From an uncultured bacterium (GTDB lineage: Bacteria > Hydrothermota > UBA3072), in NCBI GenBank assembly GCA_964556365.1, contig CAZKVT010000008.1, positions 4,826 through 68,825 on the forward strand: a stretch of DNA of 64,000 nt, given 5' to 3'. Under the pieces are notes generated by a model. It made no database searches. It saw only the letters and a list, made by a program, of their open reading frames with translations, and had not been told where the DNA came from. How positions within the stretch are numbered: position 1 is the first letter of the stretch; each line of letters begins with the position of its first letter. Positions 4,905 to 64,000 of the stretch are shown here, piece after piece. A program made the position numbers and the translations under genes.

Positions 4905-6953
4905 TTACTCTTCTTTTTCGTCGTCGTCGTCTTCCTTTTCTTCAGCTTCTATATCCGAAGATTCTTCCTCTTCATCGGACTCTTCGTCGTCTTCAACCTC
5001 TACTTCACTCGACTCTTCTTCTTCAGATTCTTCTTTCTCGTCTGTGCTCTCGTCTTTTTCTTCTTCAACCTCAGCTTCCTCTTCTGCCTGTTCTTCCTCT
5101 TCATCGGACTCTTCGTCGGACTCTTCTTCGTCGTCTTTTTCTTCCTCTTTGGAATTCTCTTCGTTTTTTTCTCCTTCGACTTCAGTTTCTTCTTCTACTT
5201 CTTCCTCTTCTGCCTGTTCTTCCTTTTCGTCGTCTTCAACCTCTTCCATTTCGTCTAAGACTTCCTCCACAGCAGTTTCATCCGCTACCATCTTCCCATC
5301 TTCGCTATCTTCATAGCCTTCTTTCTTCTTCATTTCTTCAATCTTGACTTGCTGTTCTTTTTCATATTCTCGTTCCGAAAGCACTATATTTCTTCTATCC
5401 ACATCGATTTCTATAACCTTTAACTTTAATTTATCGCCTAAAGAATAACCTTCTTCAGGTTTTTTGATATTCTTCTTGGTTAAATGGGAAAAAGGAACGA
5501 AACCTTTCAATCCCTTTCCAAGAGAAACAATTACTCCTCTGGGAAGCATCTCATAGATTGTACCAATAATATTACTATCTACAGGATACTTTTTCGCGAA
5601 AATTTTCAAAGGATCATCTTTAAGCTGCTTTAACCCAAGAGAAATACGTCTTTCCGCCACATCAACCGATAATACTTCACACTTTATCGTCTTCCCTTTA
5701 TCGAGCACATCCCGTGGATGATTAATTCGCTGAGTCCAGGATATATCGGATATATGGAGCAATCCTTCGACCCCCTCTTCCAATTGAATGAAAGCCCCAA
5801 AAGAAGTAAGATTAACTACCTTACCTTTAACAACGGAACCGACAGGATATTTTTCCTCTACGTCTTCCCATGGATCAGGAACTGCTTGACGTAACCCTAA
5901 AGAAATTTTGCGAGCTTTTTCATCAACCTCTAAAACGATTGCGTCTACTTCCTGCCCAACTTTCATTACCTCTGAAGGGTGTTTTATGTGCTTGGTCCAG
6001 GACATCTCAGAAACGTGTATAAGACCTTCAATCCCTGTTTCAAGCTCGACAAAAGCGCCGTAATCGGTAAGAGAAACAACCTTTCCGGTAACCTGATTCC
6101 CTATTTGATAAGTTTCCATTACATTTTTCCATGGATCCGGCTTTAATTGTTTCAAACCCAAAGATACTCTTTTAGAATCCCGATCTACATCTTTGACTTT
6201 TACTTTCACAGTATCGCCTATTGAAAGCATTTCGGAAGGATGATTAATTCTCCTCCAGGACATATCGGTTATATGCAGAAGACCGTCTATCCCATCGAGC
6301 TCTATAAAAGCTCCGAATTCGGTAATATTCTTAACTGTTCCCTCTACTATCTGCCCTTCTTCTATTTCTTCCAAGAATTCTTTGACTCTTTCTTCCTGTT
6401 TTTCACTCAGGAGAACTCTTCTCGATACCACGATATTCCTACGTTTAAAGTTTACCTTAATTATCCTGACATCGAATTTGTCGCCAATTTCAACATCAGA
6501 TTCTCTGGCGGGTTTTAAATCGATTTGAGACCCCGGTAGAAAAGCTTCAGTACCAAACACTTTCACCATAAGTCCACCCTTAACTCTTCTAACAACCTCA
6601 CATTCTACGGGAGTTTCCTCCTTGTGCACCTCTTTAACATGGTCCCAAACTTTAATGAAATCAGCTTTCTTCTTCGAAATTGTAGCCAGTCCCCTTGTGC
6701 CTCCTATGTCATCGAGATAAACATCTACAACGTCCCCTACAGAAAAATCTGAAACCGAATCAAAATCATCTATAGGTATAATACCCTCAGATTTCAAACC
6801 AACATTCACCAAAACTTCATTGGCTGTAATCTTAACAATTCTCCCTTTAACCAGACCTATTCCCGGAGACTCATTCTCGAGATATTTTTCGAGCAGATTT
6901 AACGCTTCATCTTCACTTATAGGTTCGATTATCGAACTTAATTCCTCATTCAT
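4905..6953 (-). CDS. rpsA: 30S ribosomal protein S1 with long acidic C-terminal extension
   Basis: 682 aa; six S1-type repeats (G.V..ITEFGAF(I/V)EL..G(I/V)(D/E)GL(L/I)H(I/V)S(D/E)(M/I)SW), then about 140 aa of almost pure D/E/K. Confidence 0.9.
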   Translation of the reverse strand: MNEELSSIIEPISEDEALNLLEKYLENESPGIGLVKGRIVKITANEVLVNVGLKSEGIIPIDDFDSVSDFSVGDVVDVYLDDIGGTRGLATISKKKADFIKVWDHVKEVHKEETPVECEVVRRVKGGLMVKVFGTEAFLPGSQIDLKPARESDVEIGDKFDVRIIKVNFKRRNIVVSRRVLLSEKQEERVKEFLEEIEEGQIVEGTVKNITEFGAFIELDGIDGLLHITDMSWRRINHPSEMLSIGDTVKVKVKDVDRDSKRVSLGLKQLKPDPWKNVMETYQIGNQVTGKVVSLTDYGAFVELETGIEGLIHVSEMSWTKHIKHPSEVMKVGQEVDAIVLEVDEKARKISLGLRQAVPDPWEDVEEKYPVGSVVKGKVVNLTSFGAFIQLEEGVEGLLHISDISWTQRINHPRDVLDKGKTIKCEVLSVDVAERRISLGLKQLKDDPLKIFAKKYPVDSNIIGTIYEMLPRGVIVSLGKGLKGFVPFSHLTKKNIKKPEEGYSLGDKLKLKVIEIDVDRRNIVLSEREYEKEQQVKIEEMKKKEGYEDSEDGKMVADETAVEEVLDEMEEVEDDEKEEQAEEEEVEEETEVEGEKNEENSKEEEKDDEEESDEESDEEEEQAEEEAEVEEEKDESTDEKEESEEEESSEVEVEDDEESDEEEESSDIEAEEKEDDDDEKEE

Positions 6954-57277: not shown

Positions 57278-59155
57278 GTGTCTTCAAATATTTTAAAAGA
57301 AAGGTTAGAAAAAGAACAGTATGATAAACTGATACGGATTGACAATCCCGAACTGCATGAATTTGTCGCGAAATATATTGAACATTGTAATCCTGAAAAA
57401 GTATTCGTTTGTACCGATTCAAAAGAAGATATCAAATACATAAGAGAAGCCGCCATCAGGAATGGGGAAGAAATCGAACTCGCAAAAGAAAATCACACAA
57501 TTCATTTCGATAATTATTACGACCAGGCAAGAGATAAGAAAAACACAAAAATATTACTTTCCGAAGGAGTAGAACTCGATAAAACAATAAACACTGCCCC
57601 CAGAGAACAATCCCTTGAAGAAGTTCACGGAATAATGAAAGACATAATGAAGGGGAAAGAAGTATATATTAGATTTTTCAGTCTGGGACCCACAAACTCT
57701 GAATTCTCACAACCTACAATGCAAATGACAGATTCAGCCTATGTCGCTCACAGCGAAGACTTGCTTTACAGACAGGGATTCGAAGAATTCGTACGTCAGG
57801 GAAGAAACGCCCGCGCCTTTAAAATAGTCCACTCTGCGGGTGAACTCGATGTTCGAAATACAAGCAAAAATTTGGATAAACGCAGAGTGTATATAGACCT
57901 CGAAGAAAATACGGTTTACAGCGCGAACACTCAATACGGTGGAAACACAATCGGACTAAAAAAACTATCGATGCGTCTCGCGATTAACCGCGGAATAAAA
58001 GAAGGATGGCTAACAGAACATATGCTGGTCATGGGTGTTCATGGCCCTAATGATAGAGTTACGTATCTTACGGGCGCGTTTCCTTCTCTCTGCGGAAAAA
58101 CTTCTACCGCGATGCTGGATAATGAATCTGTTATCGGCGATGATATTGCTTATCTTAGAAAGAAAGATGGTAAAGTACGAGCGGTCAACGTCGAAAGCGG
58201 GGTATTTGGAATTATCATGGGAGTAAACTCCCTTGACGACCCCATAATCTGGGATGCTCTACATTCTAACGCGGAAATAATATTTTCCAATATTCTAATG
58301 ACACCCGAAGGTGGAGTTCACTGGATAGACAAAGACGGAGAAATACCCGAAAAAGGGATAAATCATTCGGGAGAATGGCATAAAGGCAAAAAAGATAAAG
58401 AAGGAAAAGAAATAACCCCCTCTCACCGAAATGCGAGATTTACTATCTCTCTGGAAAACTTCGACCACCGCGACCCAAAACTTCACGACCCAAAAGGAGT
58501 CGAAATAGGTGGTATAGTTTACGGCGGAAGAGACTCCGACACCTGGGTTCCAATCAAAGAATCTCTAGACTGGGCGCATGGAATAATAGCTTACGGTGCA
58601 TCGCTCGAATCGGAAACCACTGCCGCAACGTTAGGACAAGAGGGAGTAAGAAAATTCAACGTCATGTCTAACATGGATTTCCTTTCTGTTTCAATAAGAG
58701 ATTATATAAACGCGAACCTTGATTTCGCGAAAGGGTTAGAAAAAGAACCCAGTATATTCGCGGTCAATTATTTCCTTGTAGATAAAGACGGTAATTTCCT
58801 TAACTCGAGAGAAGACAAAAAAGTCTGGTATAAATGGGCAGAACTCCGGGCAAATAGAGACGTGGACGCGATAAACGCTCCAACCGGTCGCATTCCCAAA
58901 TACGAAGACCTGAAAAGACTCTTTAAAGAAGTTATAAATAAAGAGTTTACCGAAGAAGATTATAACGAACAATTCAAAATAAGAGTAAAAGAAAATATCG
59001 CGAAAATCGACCGAATCGAGGAAATTTACAGGACACAGATAATGGATGCTCCGAAAGTCGTTTTCGATGTTCTGGAAGAACAGAGAAAAAGACTCCTTTC
59101 AGCGCAAGCGAAGCATGGAGACTACATTCTTCCAGGAAACCTGGAAGAATGTTAG
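57278..59155 (+). CDS. pckG: phosphoenolpyruvate carboxykinase (GTP)
   Basis: 625 aa; GTG start after AAGGAGGG; FPSLCGKTSTAML kinase-1a motif, NARFT, GGRDSD. Confidence 0.95.
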   Translation: MSSNILKERLEKEQYDKLIRIDNPELHEFVAKYIEHCNPEKVFVCTDSKEDIKYIREAAIRNGEEIELAKENHTIHFDNYYDQARDKKNTKILLSEGVELDKTINTAPREQSLEEVHGIMKDIMKGKEVYIRFFSLGPTNSEFSQPTMQMTDSAYVAHSEDLLYRQGFEEFVRQGRNARAFKIVHSAGELDVRNTSKNLDKRRVYIDLEENTVYSANTQYGGNTIGLKKLSMRLAINRGIKEGWLTEHMLVMGVHGPNDRVTYLTGAFPSLCGKTSTAMLDNESVIGDDIAYLRKKDGKVRAVNVESGVFGIIMGVNSLDDPIIWDALHSNAEIIFSNILMTPEGGVHWIDKDGEIPEKGINHSGEWHKGKKDKEGKEITPSHRNARFTISLENFDHRDPKLHDPKGVEIGGIVYGGRDSDTWVPIKESLDWAHGIIAYGASLESETTAATLGQEGVRKFNVMSNMDFLSVSIRDYINANLDFAKGLEKEPSIFAVNYFLVDKDGNFLNSREDKKVWYKWAELRANRDVDAINAPTGRIPKYEDLKRLFKEVINKEFTEEDYNEQFKIRVKENIAKIDRIEEIYRTQIMDAPKVVFDVLEEQRKRLLSAQAKHGDYILPGNLEEC

Positions 59156-59184
59156 ATCGTTAGGCCGTTAGGTAGTTAGGTCGA
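59151..59184. repeat. left 8-mer array flanking the four-helix-bundle gene
   Basis: GTTAGATC GTTAGGCC GTTAGGTA GTTAGGTC GA, beginning inside the pckG stop codon. Confidence 0.8.
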
Positions 59185-59211
59185 TAAAAACTATAAAATT
59201 TTGGAGCATTA

Positions 59212-59589
59212 ATGGAAGGACACAAGACAAAAACACATCGAGATTTGGAAATCTGGCAGAGAGGAATAGATTTAGTCACTAAGATCTATAAAATAACAAA
59301 AAACTTCCCAAAAGAGGAACTTTACGGTTTAACATCTCAAATGAGAAGAGCGGCTATTTCTTATCCCAGTAATATTTCAGAAGGAGCTGCCCGTGATTCA
59401 ATAAACGATTATATTCGTTTCCTATACATATCTATGGGATCACTCTCCGAACTTGAAACACAAATAATTATTTCCGAAAAGTTAGGATACCTCAAAGATT
59501 CAAAAGATATACTTGAAGATATCGAAGCGATCACTCGAAAAACTTATAATCTGATAAAATATCTCAAATCAAAAAAAGATTCATCTTAA
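59212..59589 (+). CDS. four-helix-bundle protein (23S rRNA intervening-sequence protein family, TIGR02436-like)
   Basis: 125 aa; DLEIWQRGIDLV..IYKITKNFPKEELYGLTSQMRRAAISYPSNISEGAAR...FLYISMGSLSELETQ matches the family pattern as I recall it; GGAG RBS. Confidence 0.8.
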   Translation: MEGHKTKTHRDLEIWQRGIDLVTKIYKITKNFPKEELYGLTSQMRRAAISYPSNISEGAARDSINDYIRFLYISMGSLSELETQIIISEKLGYLKDSKDILEDIEAITRKTYNLIKYLKSKKDSS

Positions 59590-59692
59590 CGAACCAACGA
59601 CCTAACGATCCAACGAACCAACCAATATAGACCTAGGACTTATTACCCAATATTCCGATCCAACGAACCAACGACCTAACGATCCAACGATT
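59588..59692. repeat. right 8-mer arrays (inverted relative to the left array), containing a perfect 29-nt direct repeat
   Basis: AACGAACCAACGACCTAACGATCCAACGA at 59588-59616 and again at 59662-59690; units CCAACGAA CCAACGAC CTAACGAT. Confidence 0.85.
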
Positions 59693-59698
59693 ACAATC

Positions 59699-59726
59699 TT
59701 GACAAACTTGCAATTTCTTATATCTT
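59699..59726 (+). promoter_or_regulatory. sigma-70-type promoter of the tRNA-Glu/tRNA-Gln pair
   Basis: TTGACA 59699-59704, 16 nt, TATCTT 59721-59726; tRNA-Glu starts at 59736. Confidence 0.5.
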
Positions 59727-59735
59727 TTATGCGCT

Positions 59736-59810
59736 GGCCCCATCGTCTAGCCCGGCCTAGGATGCATGGTTCTCAGCCATGTGACAGGGGTTCAAATCCC
59801 CTTGGGGCTA
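59736..59810 (+). tRNA. tRNA-Glu (anticodon CTC)
   Basis: Hand-folded 75 nt: GGCCCCA/TGGGGCT acceptor (G1-U72), CATGG-TTCTCAG-CCATG anticodon arm, AGGGGTTCAAATCCCCT T-arm; no encoded CCA. Confidence 0.85.
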
Positions 59811-59828
59811 TACCATATATATAATTAC

Positions 59829-59902
59829 TGGGGTGTCGTCTAATGGCAAGGCACAGGACTCTGGATCCTGCTATCGGGGTTCGAATCCCTGCACCCCAGC
59901 CA
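59829..59902 (+). tRNA. tRNA-Gln (anticodon CTG), CCA encoded
   Basis: Hand-folded 74 nt: TGGGGTG/CACCCCA acceptor, CAGGA-CTCTGGA-TCCTG anticodon arm, GGGGTTCGAATCCCT T-arm, GCCA 3' end. Confidence 0.92.
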
Positions 59903-61549
59903 TTCTTTACGATTTTTCGAACACCAATTACCACCTGCGCTCCACCGCCCACCCAACCCATGCTCGTCCGCCTCGCCCGATGGCGCTCGGCGACCTCGCT
60001 TTGAGGTCGACCGCCCTTCCGCGGAATCTTCGCCAACTACGTCGGCTCGCCCCGCGGAATAGGCTCGGTGATTTCCGAGTCCTCGAATGTATCCCTCAGG
60101 CAAATAGAAAATGTCCAACGAAACTTCGTCAAGTCCATAAGATATGGACTTGATAAGACTTTGAAAAAGCTGGGGTCTGTCTTTGGGGGAAATTTCGCCA
60201 ATCTTTTTTGAAAAATCTTTTAAGTTTTCTAAAACAATTTTTGTTTCAAACTTTTCTTTTTCTTCTTTTTGAATTGAAAGTTTTATCCCCTCTAAATCAA
60301 ATTCCAAAACCTTTTTCTTGTTTTCGAGATTTTCGATTTCCTTCCTAACGGAAGGAAATCTCTCAATCCCCACTTCCGAGAGAATATCGATAAGATTTTG
60401 GAGTTTACTCCCCACCACCCTTAATTCATCGATTTTCTCTTTTTCTTGTTTTTTGAGGGGGCTTATTTTTAGTTCGTCGTTTTTGTTTGTTCTCTCGACT
60501 ATTTTGTTTATTGCTTTTTCGTCTTTGCTTATTTCCTTTAATTTGTATATGACAAAATCTTCGATTTTGTCCGCATTCACCGATTTAATATTACAGCTAT
60601 CCCACTCATGCTTATAAGTTTTTGTGCAGCGGTAATATTTTGTATATCTCGGAGTAATTCCGTCCTTATGTTTATTTTTTGTATAGGTCGGCGTCATGGT
60701 CGAACCGCATTCACTGCACTTAAGAAGACCCTGCAAAAAATAAACGTGGTCTATTTTCGTTTTTCTCTTATACCTTTTCTTGTGGAAGCTTTGAGCTTTT
60801 AAAAACATCGGCTCTGTTATTATCGGTTTATGGACTCCATCGTAAAGATTTTCTTTATACGGAAGTTTACCGTAATAAACAGGATTTCTTAAAATATTAT
60901 CTACGGTCGTTTTACTGAATTTCTTGCCTTTCCTTGTTTTATATTTTTTATTTATTCGTCTTCTTGTCTCCGCAAGCGACTTAGTTTCAATAAATATTTT
61001 AAACATTTCTTTTACAAATTCTGATTCTTCCGGGTTTATAACAAGTTTTTTATCTTTGTTCTTATATCCGTACGGAACAGTTCCTCCGTTCCACATTCCT
61101 TTCTCCGCTCTCTGATACATTTTATCTTTTGTTCTCTCCGCTGAGAGTTCCCGTTCAAACTGAGCGAAAGTTAGCATAATATTTCTTAAGAGTCTTCCCG
61201 AAGGAGTTGCAGTATCAAAGTGTTCTGTTATGGAAATAAAAGAAACTCCGTTACTGTCGAAAAGTTCAATCAAAGCGTAAAAATCTTTAGGCGACCTTGT
61301 CAGCCTATCGATTTTATAACAGAGTACACAATCGATTTTTCCGTCGATAATATCTTTAAGCATTCTGCCGAGTGCGGGTCTTTCGATATTCGCGCCGGAA
61401 TATCCGGGGTCACTATAAACCTGATAAAGTTTAAGCTCTTCCTGACTTTTAATGTAGGATTTTATCCGTTCTTCCTGGGCTTCGCAGGAGTTATATTCCT
61501 TTTCCGCTTGATTATCTGTTGATACTCGAGTGTATATCGCACATTTCAT
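59840..61549 (-). CDS. large serine recombinase (recognisable domains end near 60092; ORF tail reads through the GC-rich segment and antisense tRNA-Gln)
   Basis: 569 aa; catalytic CAIYTRVSTDNQ, resolvase domain, recombinase domain, zinc ribbon CSECGSTMTP...YYRC, long coiled coil; AGGAAGGAAG RBS. Confidence 0.9.
   Translation of the reverse strand: MKCAIYTRVSTDNQAEKEYNSCEAQEERIKSYIKSQEELKLYQVYSDPGYSGANIERPALGRMLKDIIDGKIDCVLCYKIDRLTRSPKDFYALIELFDSNGVSFISITEHFDTATPSGRLLRNIMLTFAQFERELSAERTKDKMYQRAEKGMWNGGTVPYGYKNKDKKLVINPEESEFVKEMFKIFIETKSLAETRRRINKKYKTRKGKKFSKTTVDNILRNPVYYGKLPYKENLYDGVHKPIITEPMFLKAQSFHKKRYKRKTKIDHVYFLQGLLKCSECGSTMTPTYTKNKHKDGITPRYTKYYRCTKTYKHEWDSCNIKSVNADKIEDFVIYKLKEISKDEKAINKIVERTNKNDELKISPLKKQEKEKIDELRVVGSKLQNLIDILSEVGIERFPSVRKEIENLENKKKVLEFDLEGIKLSIQKEEKEKFETKIVLENLKDFSKKIGEISPKDRPQLFQSLIKSISYGLDEVSLDIFYLPEGYIRGLGNHRAYSAGRADVVGEDSAEGRSTSKRGRRAPSGEADEHGLGGRWSAGGNWCSKNRKEWLGCRDSNPDSRIQSPVPCH
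59903..60092. other. GC-rich, C-skewed, hairpin-rich segment of unknown nature
   Basis: Hand count of 59931-60070: 98/140 G+C (C 62, G 36 on + strand) against AT-rich surroundings. Hairpins at 59989-60012 and 60064-60079; palindrome TTCCGCGGAA 60017-60026. Confidence 0.5.
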
Positions 61550-63009
61550 TTGCTTCCTTTCCTTTTTTTAGACTCTCTGCAAAACCTAACATACCATTTC
61601 TCTTTGACTATTAGCTTTTCGATATCTTTGTTTGAAAATCCTAAAAGCCCTAATAAACTTATTAAAAGTAAGAGTTTCAACTTTTGCAAAAGCTCAAAAA
61701 GTTCCTCTGACTCTGAAATTTGATCACGCGAAGAAGAATCTAGATGGGCTAAATAATTTCTATTCTTTGCAACTTTTTCACCAAAAGATTCATCATCTTC
61801 TACAAAATTTCTTGTTACCTCAGAATATTTTTTTATAATATATTTTAGTCTCGATTTCAAAGAAGGCTCATTACTATACTTTAGTCTAGATTTTAACCAG
61901 CTTTCATATTTATCAGGAACAGCTTCTAATATAATCTTAATTCTCTCTTCATGTCTTGTTTTATCCATCTCTTCGTTATTTTCAAAGATTCGGGGAAAAG
62001 ACTCAATTGCTTGAACTACATTCAAAAACTGATTTTGCAGAGAAAAATAACTCTCATCAAGTGTCAAGAAATGAATTTGATAAACAGATTCTAAAATTTT
62101 AGCATTCGCAAACCATCTATTCATTAAATCTTCCAATTTTCCAGCAACATCAGAAAATGCAAAAAGAAAATCATGCCTTGTTAAATATTCTGGCTTCTCT
62201 GGTAAACCTCGAAAAGAATAGAGGACATTTATTGACTTAAACTTATCTTTTTCTAAGTCCTGTATACCGGAAACAAATAAGGGATACACAGGCCACCTAA
62301 TAGAAAGGGATAAAAAACTCTGTATTACACTTAATACTTCTAGAAACCTCTTAAATTCTGTATATTTCTTATAATTCATACTTATGATACATTCTTGTAT
62401 TACTTCTACTTTATTGCTATCTCCTATTAAAGGAATTTTGTCAGGCTTTATAAAAAGCTCAATTTTAAGATCTTTACCTATGTTGAGAATAATAGGATCT
62501 TTCTCTTTGTAGTTAATAGTAAATCCTGTATCAAGGTCAATCTCTGCTTTGAGACCGCTAACATCAAACCACTTATCCAAATAAGTAAGTTTTGCATAAA
62601 CTTTATTAAATTTTATTTCATCAATGTTGTTAAAGTGAGCGCCAAAAAAAGCCGTCTGGGAAAAAATGGAATCACATTTAACACAGCTACCACTAAAATG
62701 TGGCCGAATATTAGAGCAACCAGTTAAAGTAACAATTTTGCCATTACATAATAAACCATGCATTAAATTTTCTTCTTCGCTCAGAAAAGAGGTCAAACTG
62801 GTCCGGCCTTTAATTTTTTTCCTAATATCAAAATCCTCGATTATATCTAACATTAACCCCTTTCTAGGATTAAAAGTGAGCGTTCCAGCTTTTTTTTCAT
62901 TGGCTTTAGAGGGATACCACCAAAGACCTTTAAAAGAATATTCTTTATTCAATTCAAATTTAACTCTATCAAAATTTACATCAGAAGGAATACTTCTAAT
63001 AAAATCCAT
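61546..63009 (-). CDS. ApeA-like HEPN-domain protein (candidate abortive-infection/defence nuclease)
   Basis: 487 aa; N-terminal FKGLWWYPSKANEKKAGTLTFNPRKGLMLDI, C-terminal helical region with NRNYLAH (R-x4-H); stop overlaps the recombinase ATG. Confidence 0.5.
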   Translation of the reverse strand: MDFIRSIPSDVNFDRVKFELNKEYSFKGLWWYPSKANEKKAGTLTFNPRKGLMLDIIEDFDIRKKIKGRTSLTSFLSEEENLMHGLLCNGKIVTLTGCSNIRPHFSGSCVKCDSIFSQTAFFGAHFNNIDEIKFNKVYAKLTYLDKWFDVSGLKAEIDLDTGFTINYKEKDPIILNIGKDLKIELFIKPDKIPLIGDSNKVEVIQECIISMNYKKYTEFKRFLEVLSVIQSFLSLSIRWPVYPLFVSGIQDLEKDKFKSINVLYSFRGLPEKPEYLTRHDFLFAFSDVAGKLEDLMNRWFANAKILESVYQIHFLTLDESYFSLQNQFLNVVQAIESFPRIFENNEEMDKTRHEERIKIILEAVPDKYESWLKSRLKYSNEPSLKSRLKYIIKKYSEVTRNFVEDDESFGEKVAKNRNYLAHLDSSSRDQISESEELFELLQKLKLLLLISLLGLLGFSNKDIEKLIVKEKWYVRFCRESKKRKGSK

Positions 63010-63308: not shown

Positions 63309-64000
63309 ATGGCTGAAATAATAGATTTAACAGGTTATTTAATCTATGAATTCGAGGGCTTAAAAAGAAAACCCCTTAAAGGCAAATATACAGCAGAAAC
63401 CTTATCTAAAGTATTCATTCAAGAATGGGTTCCATACATAGAATGCCATGAATGCGGGAGATCTGACTATTGTAAATATGCTAAACCACACCCCCGTTTT
63501 CCTGGAAAAATGATAGAAATTAAATGTGGTATTGTAGAGAAAGCCATTTCAAATTTTGTTAGTAATACTTTTAATCTATTAAAAGATATGAACTCAGAGC
63601 AAATACAAAATTATATTGATGGCGCTTTTTATTTCTCTAATTTTATATATGCAGCAGAATTGTCTATAGGGAATTGCATTAATGACGATATTCTTGAACA
63701 CTTTAAAGAAACTTCACCCTCTATTTTTGGACATGTGGTTGCTTTAAGGGAAAAATTAAATGCCCTAGCAAGTGTTCTTCGCACTATTCCAAAATTCCGG
63801 ATATTCAAAGGTATTTTATTGGTAGAGGGATATTCTGAAAAAACATTTCTTGAAGAATTACGAGAAGCTCATTTTTATTGGACTCTTGAACCTACTGTCG
63901 AAGTATATGGTGGAAGGGGGGGAAAACGATTAAAAAGGATAGGAATGTTAGCTCGTAAGTATAAAGAACAAGGATATAAAATATATATTCAAGGTGACGC
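63309..64000 (+). CDS. Toprim-like domain protein with N-terminal Cys/His cluster (partial, runs off the right edge)
   Basis: Open from ATG 63309 to the window end; CHECGRSDYCKYAKPHP...KCG; FKGILLVEGYSEKTFLEEL ... GYKIYIQGD resembles the Toprim E...DxD layout. Confidence 0.4.
   Translation, partial: MAEIIDLTGYLIYEFEGLKRKPLKGKYTAETLSKVFIQEWVPYIECHECGRSDYCKYAKPHPRFPGKMIEIKCGIVEKAISNFVSNTFNLLKDMNSEQIQNYIDGAFYFSNFIYAAELSIGNCINDDILEHFKETSPSIFGHVVALREKLNALASVLRTIPKFRIFKGILLVEGYSEKTFLEELREAHFYWTLEPTVEVYGGRGGKRLKRIGMLARKYKEQGYKIYIQGD

Follow-up and report, generated by a model that had tools for sequence, protein, structure and literature searches.

The 64,000-nt stretch of contig CAZKVT010000008.1 analysed here (hereafter the window, to which all positions refer unless a contig or locus is named) carries a gene for a serine recombinase whose reading frame runs into a tRNA gene on the opposite strand. 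This open reading frame (ORF), at 59840..61549 on the minus strand, has 569 codons (569 aa). Its last recognisable recombinase residues are ..DIFYLP, with the proline codon at 60098-60100; from there it passes through a G+C-rich segment and then through the antisense of tRNA-Gln(CTG), to end at a TAG (59840-59842) that falls within the tRNA. An initial annotation made from the letters alone had described this course, and its coordinates are as claimed. Labels beginning with L, G and C denote related loci, genomes and contigs of our analysis; attP and attB are the attachment (att) sites of element and bacterium, and P and P' the two half-sites of attP. The features around the junction are the following.

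59829..59902, plus strand: tRNA-Gln(CTG) with encoded CCA, its body the putative attB-derived half-site (ARAGORN, Rfam)
59880-59885, plus strand: T-loop TTCGAA of tRNA-Gln, 11 nt from the probable crossover
59897..59899, no strand assigned: probable crossover zone CAG, the last acceptor-stem bases and the discriminator
59899..59922, minus strand: element-side half-site (P arm), GTTCGAAAAATCGTAAAGAATGG(C), read in the ORF as (C)SKNRKEW
59923..60097, minus strand: G+C-rich in-frame insert ('A', ~58 codons), from the end of the zinc ribbon (..FYLP) to the P arm
60017..60059, minus strand: conserved stem-loop in the insert, in which two CCGCGGAAT copies pair around an inner GCCGAC/GUUGGC hairpin
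59840..59898, minus strand: adventitious tail LGCRDSNPDSRIQSPVPCH and TAG, antisense of tRNA-Gln, with a predicted local distance difference test score (pLDDT) below 50
60098..61549, minus strand: recombinase body with catalytic, recombinase and zinc-ribbon domains and a coiled coil (Pfam; AlphaFold2 (AF2) pLDDT 85-94)

A large serine recombinase

Pfam recognises the domains Resolvase, Recombinase and Zn_ribbon_recom within residues 4-336. The catalytic domain PF00239 covers residues 4-153 (E 2.4e-40), PF07508 and PF13408 are also present, and AF2 places long helices at 326-465 between the zinc-ribbon strands. In a set of 51 homologues, conservation of the YTRVS motif with its nucleophile Ser10 is at least 90%, and R57, R82 and R85 never vary. 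Protein searches returned homologues at 44-90% identity, and against type-B homologues the recombinase body has a ratio of replacement to synonymous differences (pN/pS) of 0.22. By its sequence, the enzyme is a large serine recombinase; only serine recombinase domains were found, and the tyrosine recombinase fold of SSV-type integrases is not among them. Genes with an HTH_17 domain lie near some of the relatives.

A probable attachment site at the end of the tRNA gene

In homologues of 44-90% identity, with or without an insert, FYLP is followed by what looks like a conserved C-terminal protein motif, SKNRSE[WL]LP. This 'motif' is a DNA site: GTTCGAAAAATCGT(T/A)(C/A)(A/G)GAA, then TGG, then CT are kept as nucleotides in 12 members, the TGG being the antisense of the tRNA CCA. 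In the window, the P arm is made up of the 24 nt directly after this CCA. It has zero diversity in 31 unique close copies, and its conservation as DNA reaches members at 44% protein identity.

What follows the TGG takes one of two forms. In the first, it is an antisense tRNA whose T-loop TTCGAA starts 14 nt on; the tRNA is tRNA-Gln in the window and in Candidatus Tepidiaquacella (Ignavibacteriota), and tRNA-Asn in others. In the second, it is a non-tRNA arm with TTCGAAC 19 nt on, an inverted repeat of the GTTCGAA in the first arm. These attP-type copies therefore read GTTCGAA-N35-TTCGAAC, with ..AAAGAATGGCTG.. at the centre of the core, and the T-loop TTCGAA of the tRNAs lies 5-6 bp nearer that centre. 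In serine integrases, the zinc-ribbon motif of attB is likewise 5 bp closer to the centre than that of attP (PMC3783163). With its two inverted half-sites, the GTTCGAA-N35-TTCGAAC form is thus built like a serine-integrase attP, and the tRNA form differs from it in the way expected of an attB.

The position of the crossover can be approached from two sides. A second, truncated copy at G000 contig C13:1-490 (L003) comprises the last ~150 codons of the recombinase, the insert (81% identical) and the next 24 nt, has an intact attP-type site and adjoins DUF488 and PIN_8 genes. The point at which it becomes homologous to the window is exactly CAGCCA, the last tRNA bases; its other flank holds no tRNA. 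An identical 60-nt piece of the P' arm forms the start of contigs C13 and C41 (1-100), which indicates that the assembly breaks in this repeat. Homology of the window with the C13 copy, and with all attP-type copies, stops exactly at the crossover zone, and the symmetry centre of GTTCGAA-N35-TTCGAAC and the homology breakpoint both fall at CA/G before GCCA (59897-59899). The central dinucleotide is accordingly likely to be CA (TG on the recombinase strand). Given the attP anatomy, the shifted tRNA motif and the coincidence of centre and breakpoint, we read the window as P arm, crossover and tRNA body, that is, as the recombinase-proximal junction of an integrated element. An integration junction at the tRNA 3' end had been suspected from the start, and the conserved half-site with its tRNA or attP-type continuations bears this out.

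Further support for an attP built of P arm, crossover and P' arm comes from a secondary, palindromic target, CTGAAAATTCCAAAATTTGTTTGGA-TTGACAGCCAT-TCCAAACAAATTTTGGAATTTTCAG, of which reciprocal junctions were found in different sources: at L122:1864-1960 one target arm is joined to the P arm, and at L242 (G012:C22, ~1400-1520) the other is joined to the P' arm and the 3' untranslated region (UTR).

Two other kinds of match were seen. At L088, L162, L175 and L178, what adjoins the P arm is only half a tRNA-Asn, its 3' part up to the anticodon loop, with unrelated sequence beyond it; ARAGORN finds no tRNA at these four junctions. The P-arm pattern also matched unrelated tandem arrays (L181:5100-5400, L184, L125, L128, L201 and others) with a period of ~52 nt and a repeat containing GTTCGAAAAA(C/T)CGTACAAAG, which resemble CRISPR-type repeat arrays.

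The native gene continues past the crossover

A pattern scan of metagenome contigs gave 118 stretches, and over all loci there were 143 matches, some of them in unrelated repeat arrays. In attP-type copies, the recombinase frame runs past the crossover into one of a few tail classes with fixed stops. One class reads WL(P/L)xxYNLRTLRLTFxNSIFKTN up to its stop and has WLPxxDNFRTLHLRFENTII.. and LLPLLNKFRTIPIRIRNEII.., each also closed by a stop, as relatives; another reads WLSIA(N/D)xVRRWAExQxx before the stop (also given as WLSIANHVRRWAEKQVA). In the recombinase frame the tails have pN/pS values of 0.40 and 0.34, lower than in any of the other five frames and similar to the recombinase body; for the Arg-Arg pair of the tail, one subclass uses CGA AGG and the other AGG CGA. 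In these un-integrated copies the native gene therefore ends 17-26 codons past the crossover, and these codons are under protein-like selection.

Since half-site, inverted partner, selected codons and conserved stop follow one another in related contigs, attP most likely lies within the recombinase ORF. The window ORF would then be without its own stop because integration removed that stop together with the native tail and the 3' UTR. The initial annotation had stated that the ORF has no stop of its own, which applies to the integrated form in the window but not to the attP form; its suggestion that integration alters the recombinase C-terminus agrees well with the native tails. In AF2 models, the attP-state protein of L197 (572 aa) has a body with pLDDT 85-94, a stretch encoded by the G+C-rich segment at ~30 (residues 494-545) and, in the native tail, a beta-strand at 559-565 with pLDDT 66-84. 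The window protein, modelled with the same alignment, has the same disordered insert, and its tRNA-derived tail stays below 50 and forms no secondary structure.

The native stop is immediately followed by ~230 nt of conserved G+C-rich sequence that contains several hairpins (e.g., L127(-) 6338-6533 and L085:6771-6966) and has a strong folding tendency on either strand (z -3.75 and -3.89). Among 27 copies the stems hardly vary, which precludes a test for covariation. Four related loci gave nothing at gathering score against Rfam, and sequence of the 3' UTR type is absent from the window's assembly, which is 79% complete.

Several observations concern the variability of these tails and 3' UTRs. 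Whole hairpins of the 3' UTR are exchanged or inserted among copies (GCTTGC-NNNN-GCAAGC loops; CCCCTTCGGG versus CAGACTGACGTCTG), and its 3' module, CAGTCACAGTCGGTC...GTCTTCCGCAACGCCCTTTGTGTGCC, is common to elements with 66%-identical recombinases. A tail subclass with GTTAGGCGA has lost the TTCGAA DNA motif and kept the peptide. Tails of class c/d (e.g., L085:6709-6759), reading WLSIANHVRRWAEKQVA or ..QAA, end in Ala-Ala or Val-Ala, which recalls ssrA-like degradation tags; that a ..QAA or ..QVA end could act as such a tag is an analogy and only a lead. The copy at L188:325-441 is reduced to recombinase codons 1-39 and the final 9 nt of the P arm, between which stand ~160 nt of unrelated sequence; the P' arm and 3' UTR nevertheless follow.

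The G+C-rich insert is conserved as nucleic acid

The segment between recombinase body and tRNA had stood out in the initial annotation by its composition and local structures, and these descriptions were accurate to the letter. A recount of 59931-60070 again gives 98/140 G+C (62 C and 36 G on the plus strand) in a window of 37% G+C, the highest 100-nt value being 0.68. The palindrome TTCCGCGGAA is exact at 60017-60026, as are CCGCGGAAT at 60019-60027 and 60052-60060 and the hairpins at 59989-60012 and 60064-60079. Relative to dinucleotide shuffles, the segment folds with z -3.6 on the recombinase strand and z -1.9 on the plus strand. The proposed search for a known RNA family returned none for the segment: an Rfam scan of 59000-60600 at E<=10 had two tRNAs as its sole matches.

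The insert is placed between FYLP, where the last folded domain ends, and the P arm; distant members lack it (FYLPAINKSSKNRSE..). Measured between FYLP and the Trp codon, P-arm codons included, its length varies across lineages from 10 to 66 codons (33-198 nt), with three homologous length families of ~65, 59 and 41 codons and a 21-codon form. When FYLP codons were searched in any frame, the insert proved to be in frame and open in 51 of 54 unique copies, with 13 in-frame length classes versus 2 out-of-frame singletons (P = 3e-5). The frame has to stay open because the selected, functional tail lies downstream of it.

The pattern of substitution is not that of a protein. Against type-B copies, the insert has synonymous differences (pS) of 0.29-0.40, replacement differences (pN) of 0.35-0.40 and a pN/pS of ~1, compared with pS 0.77-0.84 and pN 0.18 in the recombinase body. 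Among codons for identical residues, 4 of 26 differ synonymously in the insert and 158 of 337 in the body (P = 0.002). The blocks CACCGAGCC, AAGCGAG.TCGCCGAGCG, GGCGAGGCGGACGAGC and CGCCGAGCG are invariant at all three codon positions, and nucleotide blocks are kept across lineages whose recombinases share only 66% identity. In the stem-loop at 60017-60059, 91.6% of cells are paired in 40 copies versus 37-52% in slid controls, four pairs are changed in both partners, and it is on the recombinase strand that G-U pairs appear; among the structures first described, it is this hairpin of the CCGCGG repeat that turned out to be conserved. AF2 predicts the insert to be disordered (pLDDT ~30).

Taken as a sequence, the insert is constrained as nucleic acid and not as protein, with its frame conserved. 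The initial annotation had reasoned that a C-terminal extension shared by homologues would mark a real coding region; homologues do share the extension in frame, but its conservation is at the nucleotide level. For this reason a cis element of RNA or DNA embedded in the ORF is the better reading, and we infer that the insert acts in cis beside attP, most probably as an mRNA structure that integration places in a new context, less probably as an accessory DNA site. In the minimum-energy fold of the attP state, the 3' third of the insert pairs with the start of the 3' UTR, with the att core at the apex, and when the insert is compared by blastn with the reverse-complemented 3' UTR, the match is marginal (68% over 66 nt, E 0.025 in a tiny database). 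Pairing of insert and 3' UTR across attP is a lead only.

A recurrent site for defence genes

Three other genomes of the genus, as well as many metagenome contigs, have the same junction of tRNA-Gln and half-site, and this recurrence means that it is not an accident of assembly. Three further genomes of the genus have tRNA-Gln without an intact element, two with decayed P-arm-like remnants and one with an unrelated flank. G014 and G017 were considered as empty sites and rejected, as their flank aligns with the P arm at 18/26 and a decayed remnant is more likely.

These genomes also clarify the status of the CCA. The initial annotation had observed that tRNA-Gln, alone among the five tRNAs of the window, has a CCA directly after it, which a recheck confirms, and had taken it as a sign that the element supplies the tRNA end. 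The CCA is, however, encoded at tRNA-Gln in all same-genus genomes examined, including the three without an intact element, so it is native to the tRNA gene and no evidence of integration. As the crossover is placed ~2-5 nt upstream of the CCA, the element would re-supply identical bases.

Around the junction, the window holds the following host gene and cargo.

59735..59811, plus strand: tRNA-Glu(CTC), host gene upstream of the target tRNA (ARAGORN; Rfam tRNA, 52 bits)
61546..63009, minus strand: ApeA-type HEPN defence protein, cargo (PF18862 and PF18739)
63309..64000, plus strand: cargo ORF running past the window end (ORF call; a 230-aa part without Pfam match)

The metagenome contig L193 shares the gene order PEPCK, tRNA-Gln, recombinase with the window and has a methylase and a PLD nuclease in place of ApeA. 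The viral contigs scanned for the P arm gave no match and hence no sign of a phage. The gene content of these loci indicates that the tRNA-Gln site is a defence-island hotspot with exchangeable cargo, recurrent in the genus.

Proposed integration into the tRNA gene and its alternatives

We propose that a defence island carried by a large serine recombinase has inserted at the 3' end of tRNA-Gln(CTG), that its attP lies inside the recombinase ORF and that the insert is cis-acting, a reading to which we give a probability of roughly 0.7. In the attP form, the ORF would run from ..FYLP to the P half-site GTTCGAAAAATCGTAAAGAATGG, the crossover dinucleotide, the P' half-site and 17-26 further codons before its stop, with the ~230-nt UTR behind it. 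The tRNA would be recognised as attB through its T-loop TTCGAA, which probably mimics the motif bound by the zinc-ribbon domain, 5-6 bp closer to the crossover. Strand exchange at CA just 5' of GCCA would put the P arm and the recombinase gene beside the tRNA and carry off the native tail, with its stop and 3' UTR, to the island's far end. The integrated ORF would consequently read antisense tRNA-Gln to a chance TAG, which would give it a junk C-terminus and its mRNA a different 3' end, and any pairing across attP between the 3' UTR and the insert, whose mRNA structure most likely includes the conserved 43-nt hairpin, would be broken by integration.

A number of points weigh against this proposal. 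No excised circle and no empty site with a matching far junction was seen, the far end of the island was not found in a search of the genome (a 79%-complete assembly), and the contig ends ~8 kb past the tRNA junction. The exact crossover dinucleotide, which we place at CA, is deduced from the homology breakpoint and symmetry only. With respect to the insert, the hairpins at 59989-60012 and 60064-60079 are not conserved and are disrupted in copies both close and distant, the consensus fold that RNAalifold gives over the full insert is unconvincing (covariation term -0.22), and the energies of insert/3' UTR duplexes relative to shuffles are uneven (z -0.4 to -5.2). The contrast between native and tRNA-derived tails in the AF2 models is a weak control, because the alignment holds native tails. 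Many of the aligned copies are truncated remnants from few related metagenomes and hence non-independent. Finally, within the closest lineage, the insert has a pN/pS of 0.53 in frame versus 0.77-1.6 in the other frames, which leaves room for weak protein-level selection.

The last point bears directly on the alternative that survives best, namely that the insert is translated as a disordered linker rich in Gly, Arg, Ala and Glu and does nothing as nucleic acid, its G+C content being a by-product of amino-acid composition. A linker would fit the within-lineage ratio, the lowest of six frames, as well as the frame kept in 51/54 copies, the disorder predicted by AlphaFold and the fact that the segment is common to homologues. 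It sits poorly with synonymous sites that are 2-3 times more conserved than in the body next to replacement sites that are twice less so (pN/pS ~1), with blocks such as GGCGAGGCGGACGAGC and CGCCGAGCG that are invariant at all codon positions, and with paired changes that keep the hairpin; on balance we consider it unlikely. The fold of the recombinase strand (z -3.6), the one covarying hairpin and the occurrence of a G+C-rich segment in an A+T-rich genome could also suggest an independent structured non-coding RNA gene, on either strand, carried next to the att site. Such a gene is very improbable, as the segment has no Rfam family at E<=10 and no covarying consensus fold over its whole length, is located wholly inside a frame kept open to a selected tail, ranges from 33 to 198 nt among lineages and is absent in distant members. 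Still less credible is a neutral scar, one of the possibilities raised initially, or foreign high-G+C DNA from an earlier integration or excision with a frame open by chance: although a 55-codon frame at 70% G+C would be open by chance about 1/3 of the time by our own estimate and decayed element remnants are common at tRNA-Gln, the segment occurs in ~50 distinct copies that fall into three homologous length families and invariably lie between FYLP and the P arm, its indels are multiples of three (P = 3e-5), and nucleotide blocks are kept between lineages with 66%-identical recombinases.

If a defence island with attP inside its recombinase gene is indeed the right description, the exchange of tails could be a built-in switch between the excised and integrated forms of the recombinase, an extension that we regard as doubtful. 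The excised or incoming element would make an enzyme with the native structured C-terminal strand from an mRNA that ends in a long insert/3' UTR hairpin across attP, and the integrated element would make a variant lacking that tail from an mRNA with another end. These forms might differ in stability, amount or directionality and in this way control integration versus excision, either without a directionality factor or in addition to one.

Comparison with known systems

In the order of its catalytic, recombinase and zinc-ribbon domains with coiled coil, the enzyme resembles the integrases of phiC31, Bxb1 and Listeria A118/LI. Its att sites, like those of phage serine integrases, appear to be short, with two inverted half-sites around a central dinucleotide and an attB zinc-ribbon motif 5 bp nearer the centre, here judged from sequence alone. 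Unlike in those systems, attP would lie inside the recombinase ORF, 17-26 codons before the stop, a nucleotide-conserved in-frame insert adjoins the P arm, and the cargo consists of defence genes and no phage. Moreover, where serine integrases usually target protein-coding genes, this family inserts at the 3' ends of tRNA genes (Gln, Asn) and apparently uses the universal T-loop as attB motif.

An att site within the integrase ORF, tRNA targets and alteration of the gene by integration are known from the SSV1-type 'suicidal' integrases of archaeal viruses and plasmids (PMC7253208). The selected tails, and an ORF that runs into a tRNA, suggest the same placement of the att site here. The SSV1-type enzymes are, however, tyrosine recombinases whose gene is split into two inactive pseudogenes, while the serine recombinase described here would lose its last 17-26 codons and 3' UTR with its recognised domains intact. 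In the mycobacteriophages BPs and Brujita, attP lies in the repressor gene and integration removes a C-terminal tag (PMC3694055). This integration-dependent immunity has in common with our locus an attP in coding sequence and a C-terminus that differs by integration state, but it involves a repressor gene, a tyrosine integrase and the removal of a degradation tag; the gene interrupted here is the recombinase and not a repressor. A third parallel is offered by phage lambda.

There, the RNA element sib, located beyond attP, acts on int mRNA as long as attP is intact, and integration separates the two. The elements studied here likewise have a G+C-rich 3' UTR beyond attP, to which the insert is partly complementary; this complementarity is statistically uneven, and a regulatory likeness would be one of analogy. 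Our literature searches found no serine integrase with an ORF spanning attP or with a tRNA T-loop as attB motif, although such an absence is unproven.

Serine integrases are prized for genome engineering on account of their short sites and a direction set by proteins alone. To this, the present family would add an attP in the enzyme's own coding sequence, such that the enzyme changes with integration state, and a nucleotide-conserved element between the last domain and the site. The use of tRNA T-loops as apparent attB motif could explain why several tRNA species serve as targets. Should the tail or the insert prove to influence activity or direction, this would amount to control at a new and simple level. 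An attP inside the ORF would also account for the fact that such recombinase ORFs 'lack a stop' and overlap tRNA genes in annotation, and the locus itself marks what seems to be a recurrent hotspot of defence islands in the genus.

Truncated and inverted copies

Most metagenome copies are truncated and retain the last 115-166 codons, the insert and an intact attP; their 5' breaks vary. On a single contig they are often inverted relative to a full copy or to one another. Two inverted copies of the unit 'recombinase 3' fragment, insert and att site' occur in L166, L170, L171, L140, L119 and L193, where they flank defence cargo (OLD-type ATPase/Toprim, HEPN, methylase and PLD nuclease); the 5' breaks of these fragments cluster at several different positions. 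An inverted internal recombinase fragment (codons ~405-455) is also found at C8:69250-69400, ~430 nt past the window end; it is cut off before the insert and lies ~3 kb past the full gene, on the far side of the cargo. The idea that inverted P arms are the two ends of one excisable, transposon-like unit was rejected on account of crossover polarity: the crossover bases have the same polarity relative to each arm, so such pairs could invert but not excise. The inverted copies may be decay products, artefacts of repeat assembly or real substrates of inversion. In a wider version of the proposed scheme, inverted copies of the 3' fragment, insert and attP would be substrates for recombinase-driven inversions that reshuffle the defence cargo.

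On the host side of the junction, a gene for a four-helix-bundle protein of the 23S-rRNA-IVS type lies between PEPCK and the tRNAs (59212-59589), followed at 59590-59690 by arrays of octamers resembling CCAACGA/CCTAACGA.

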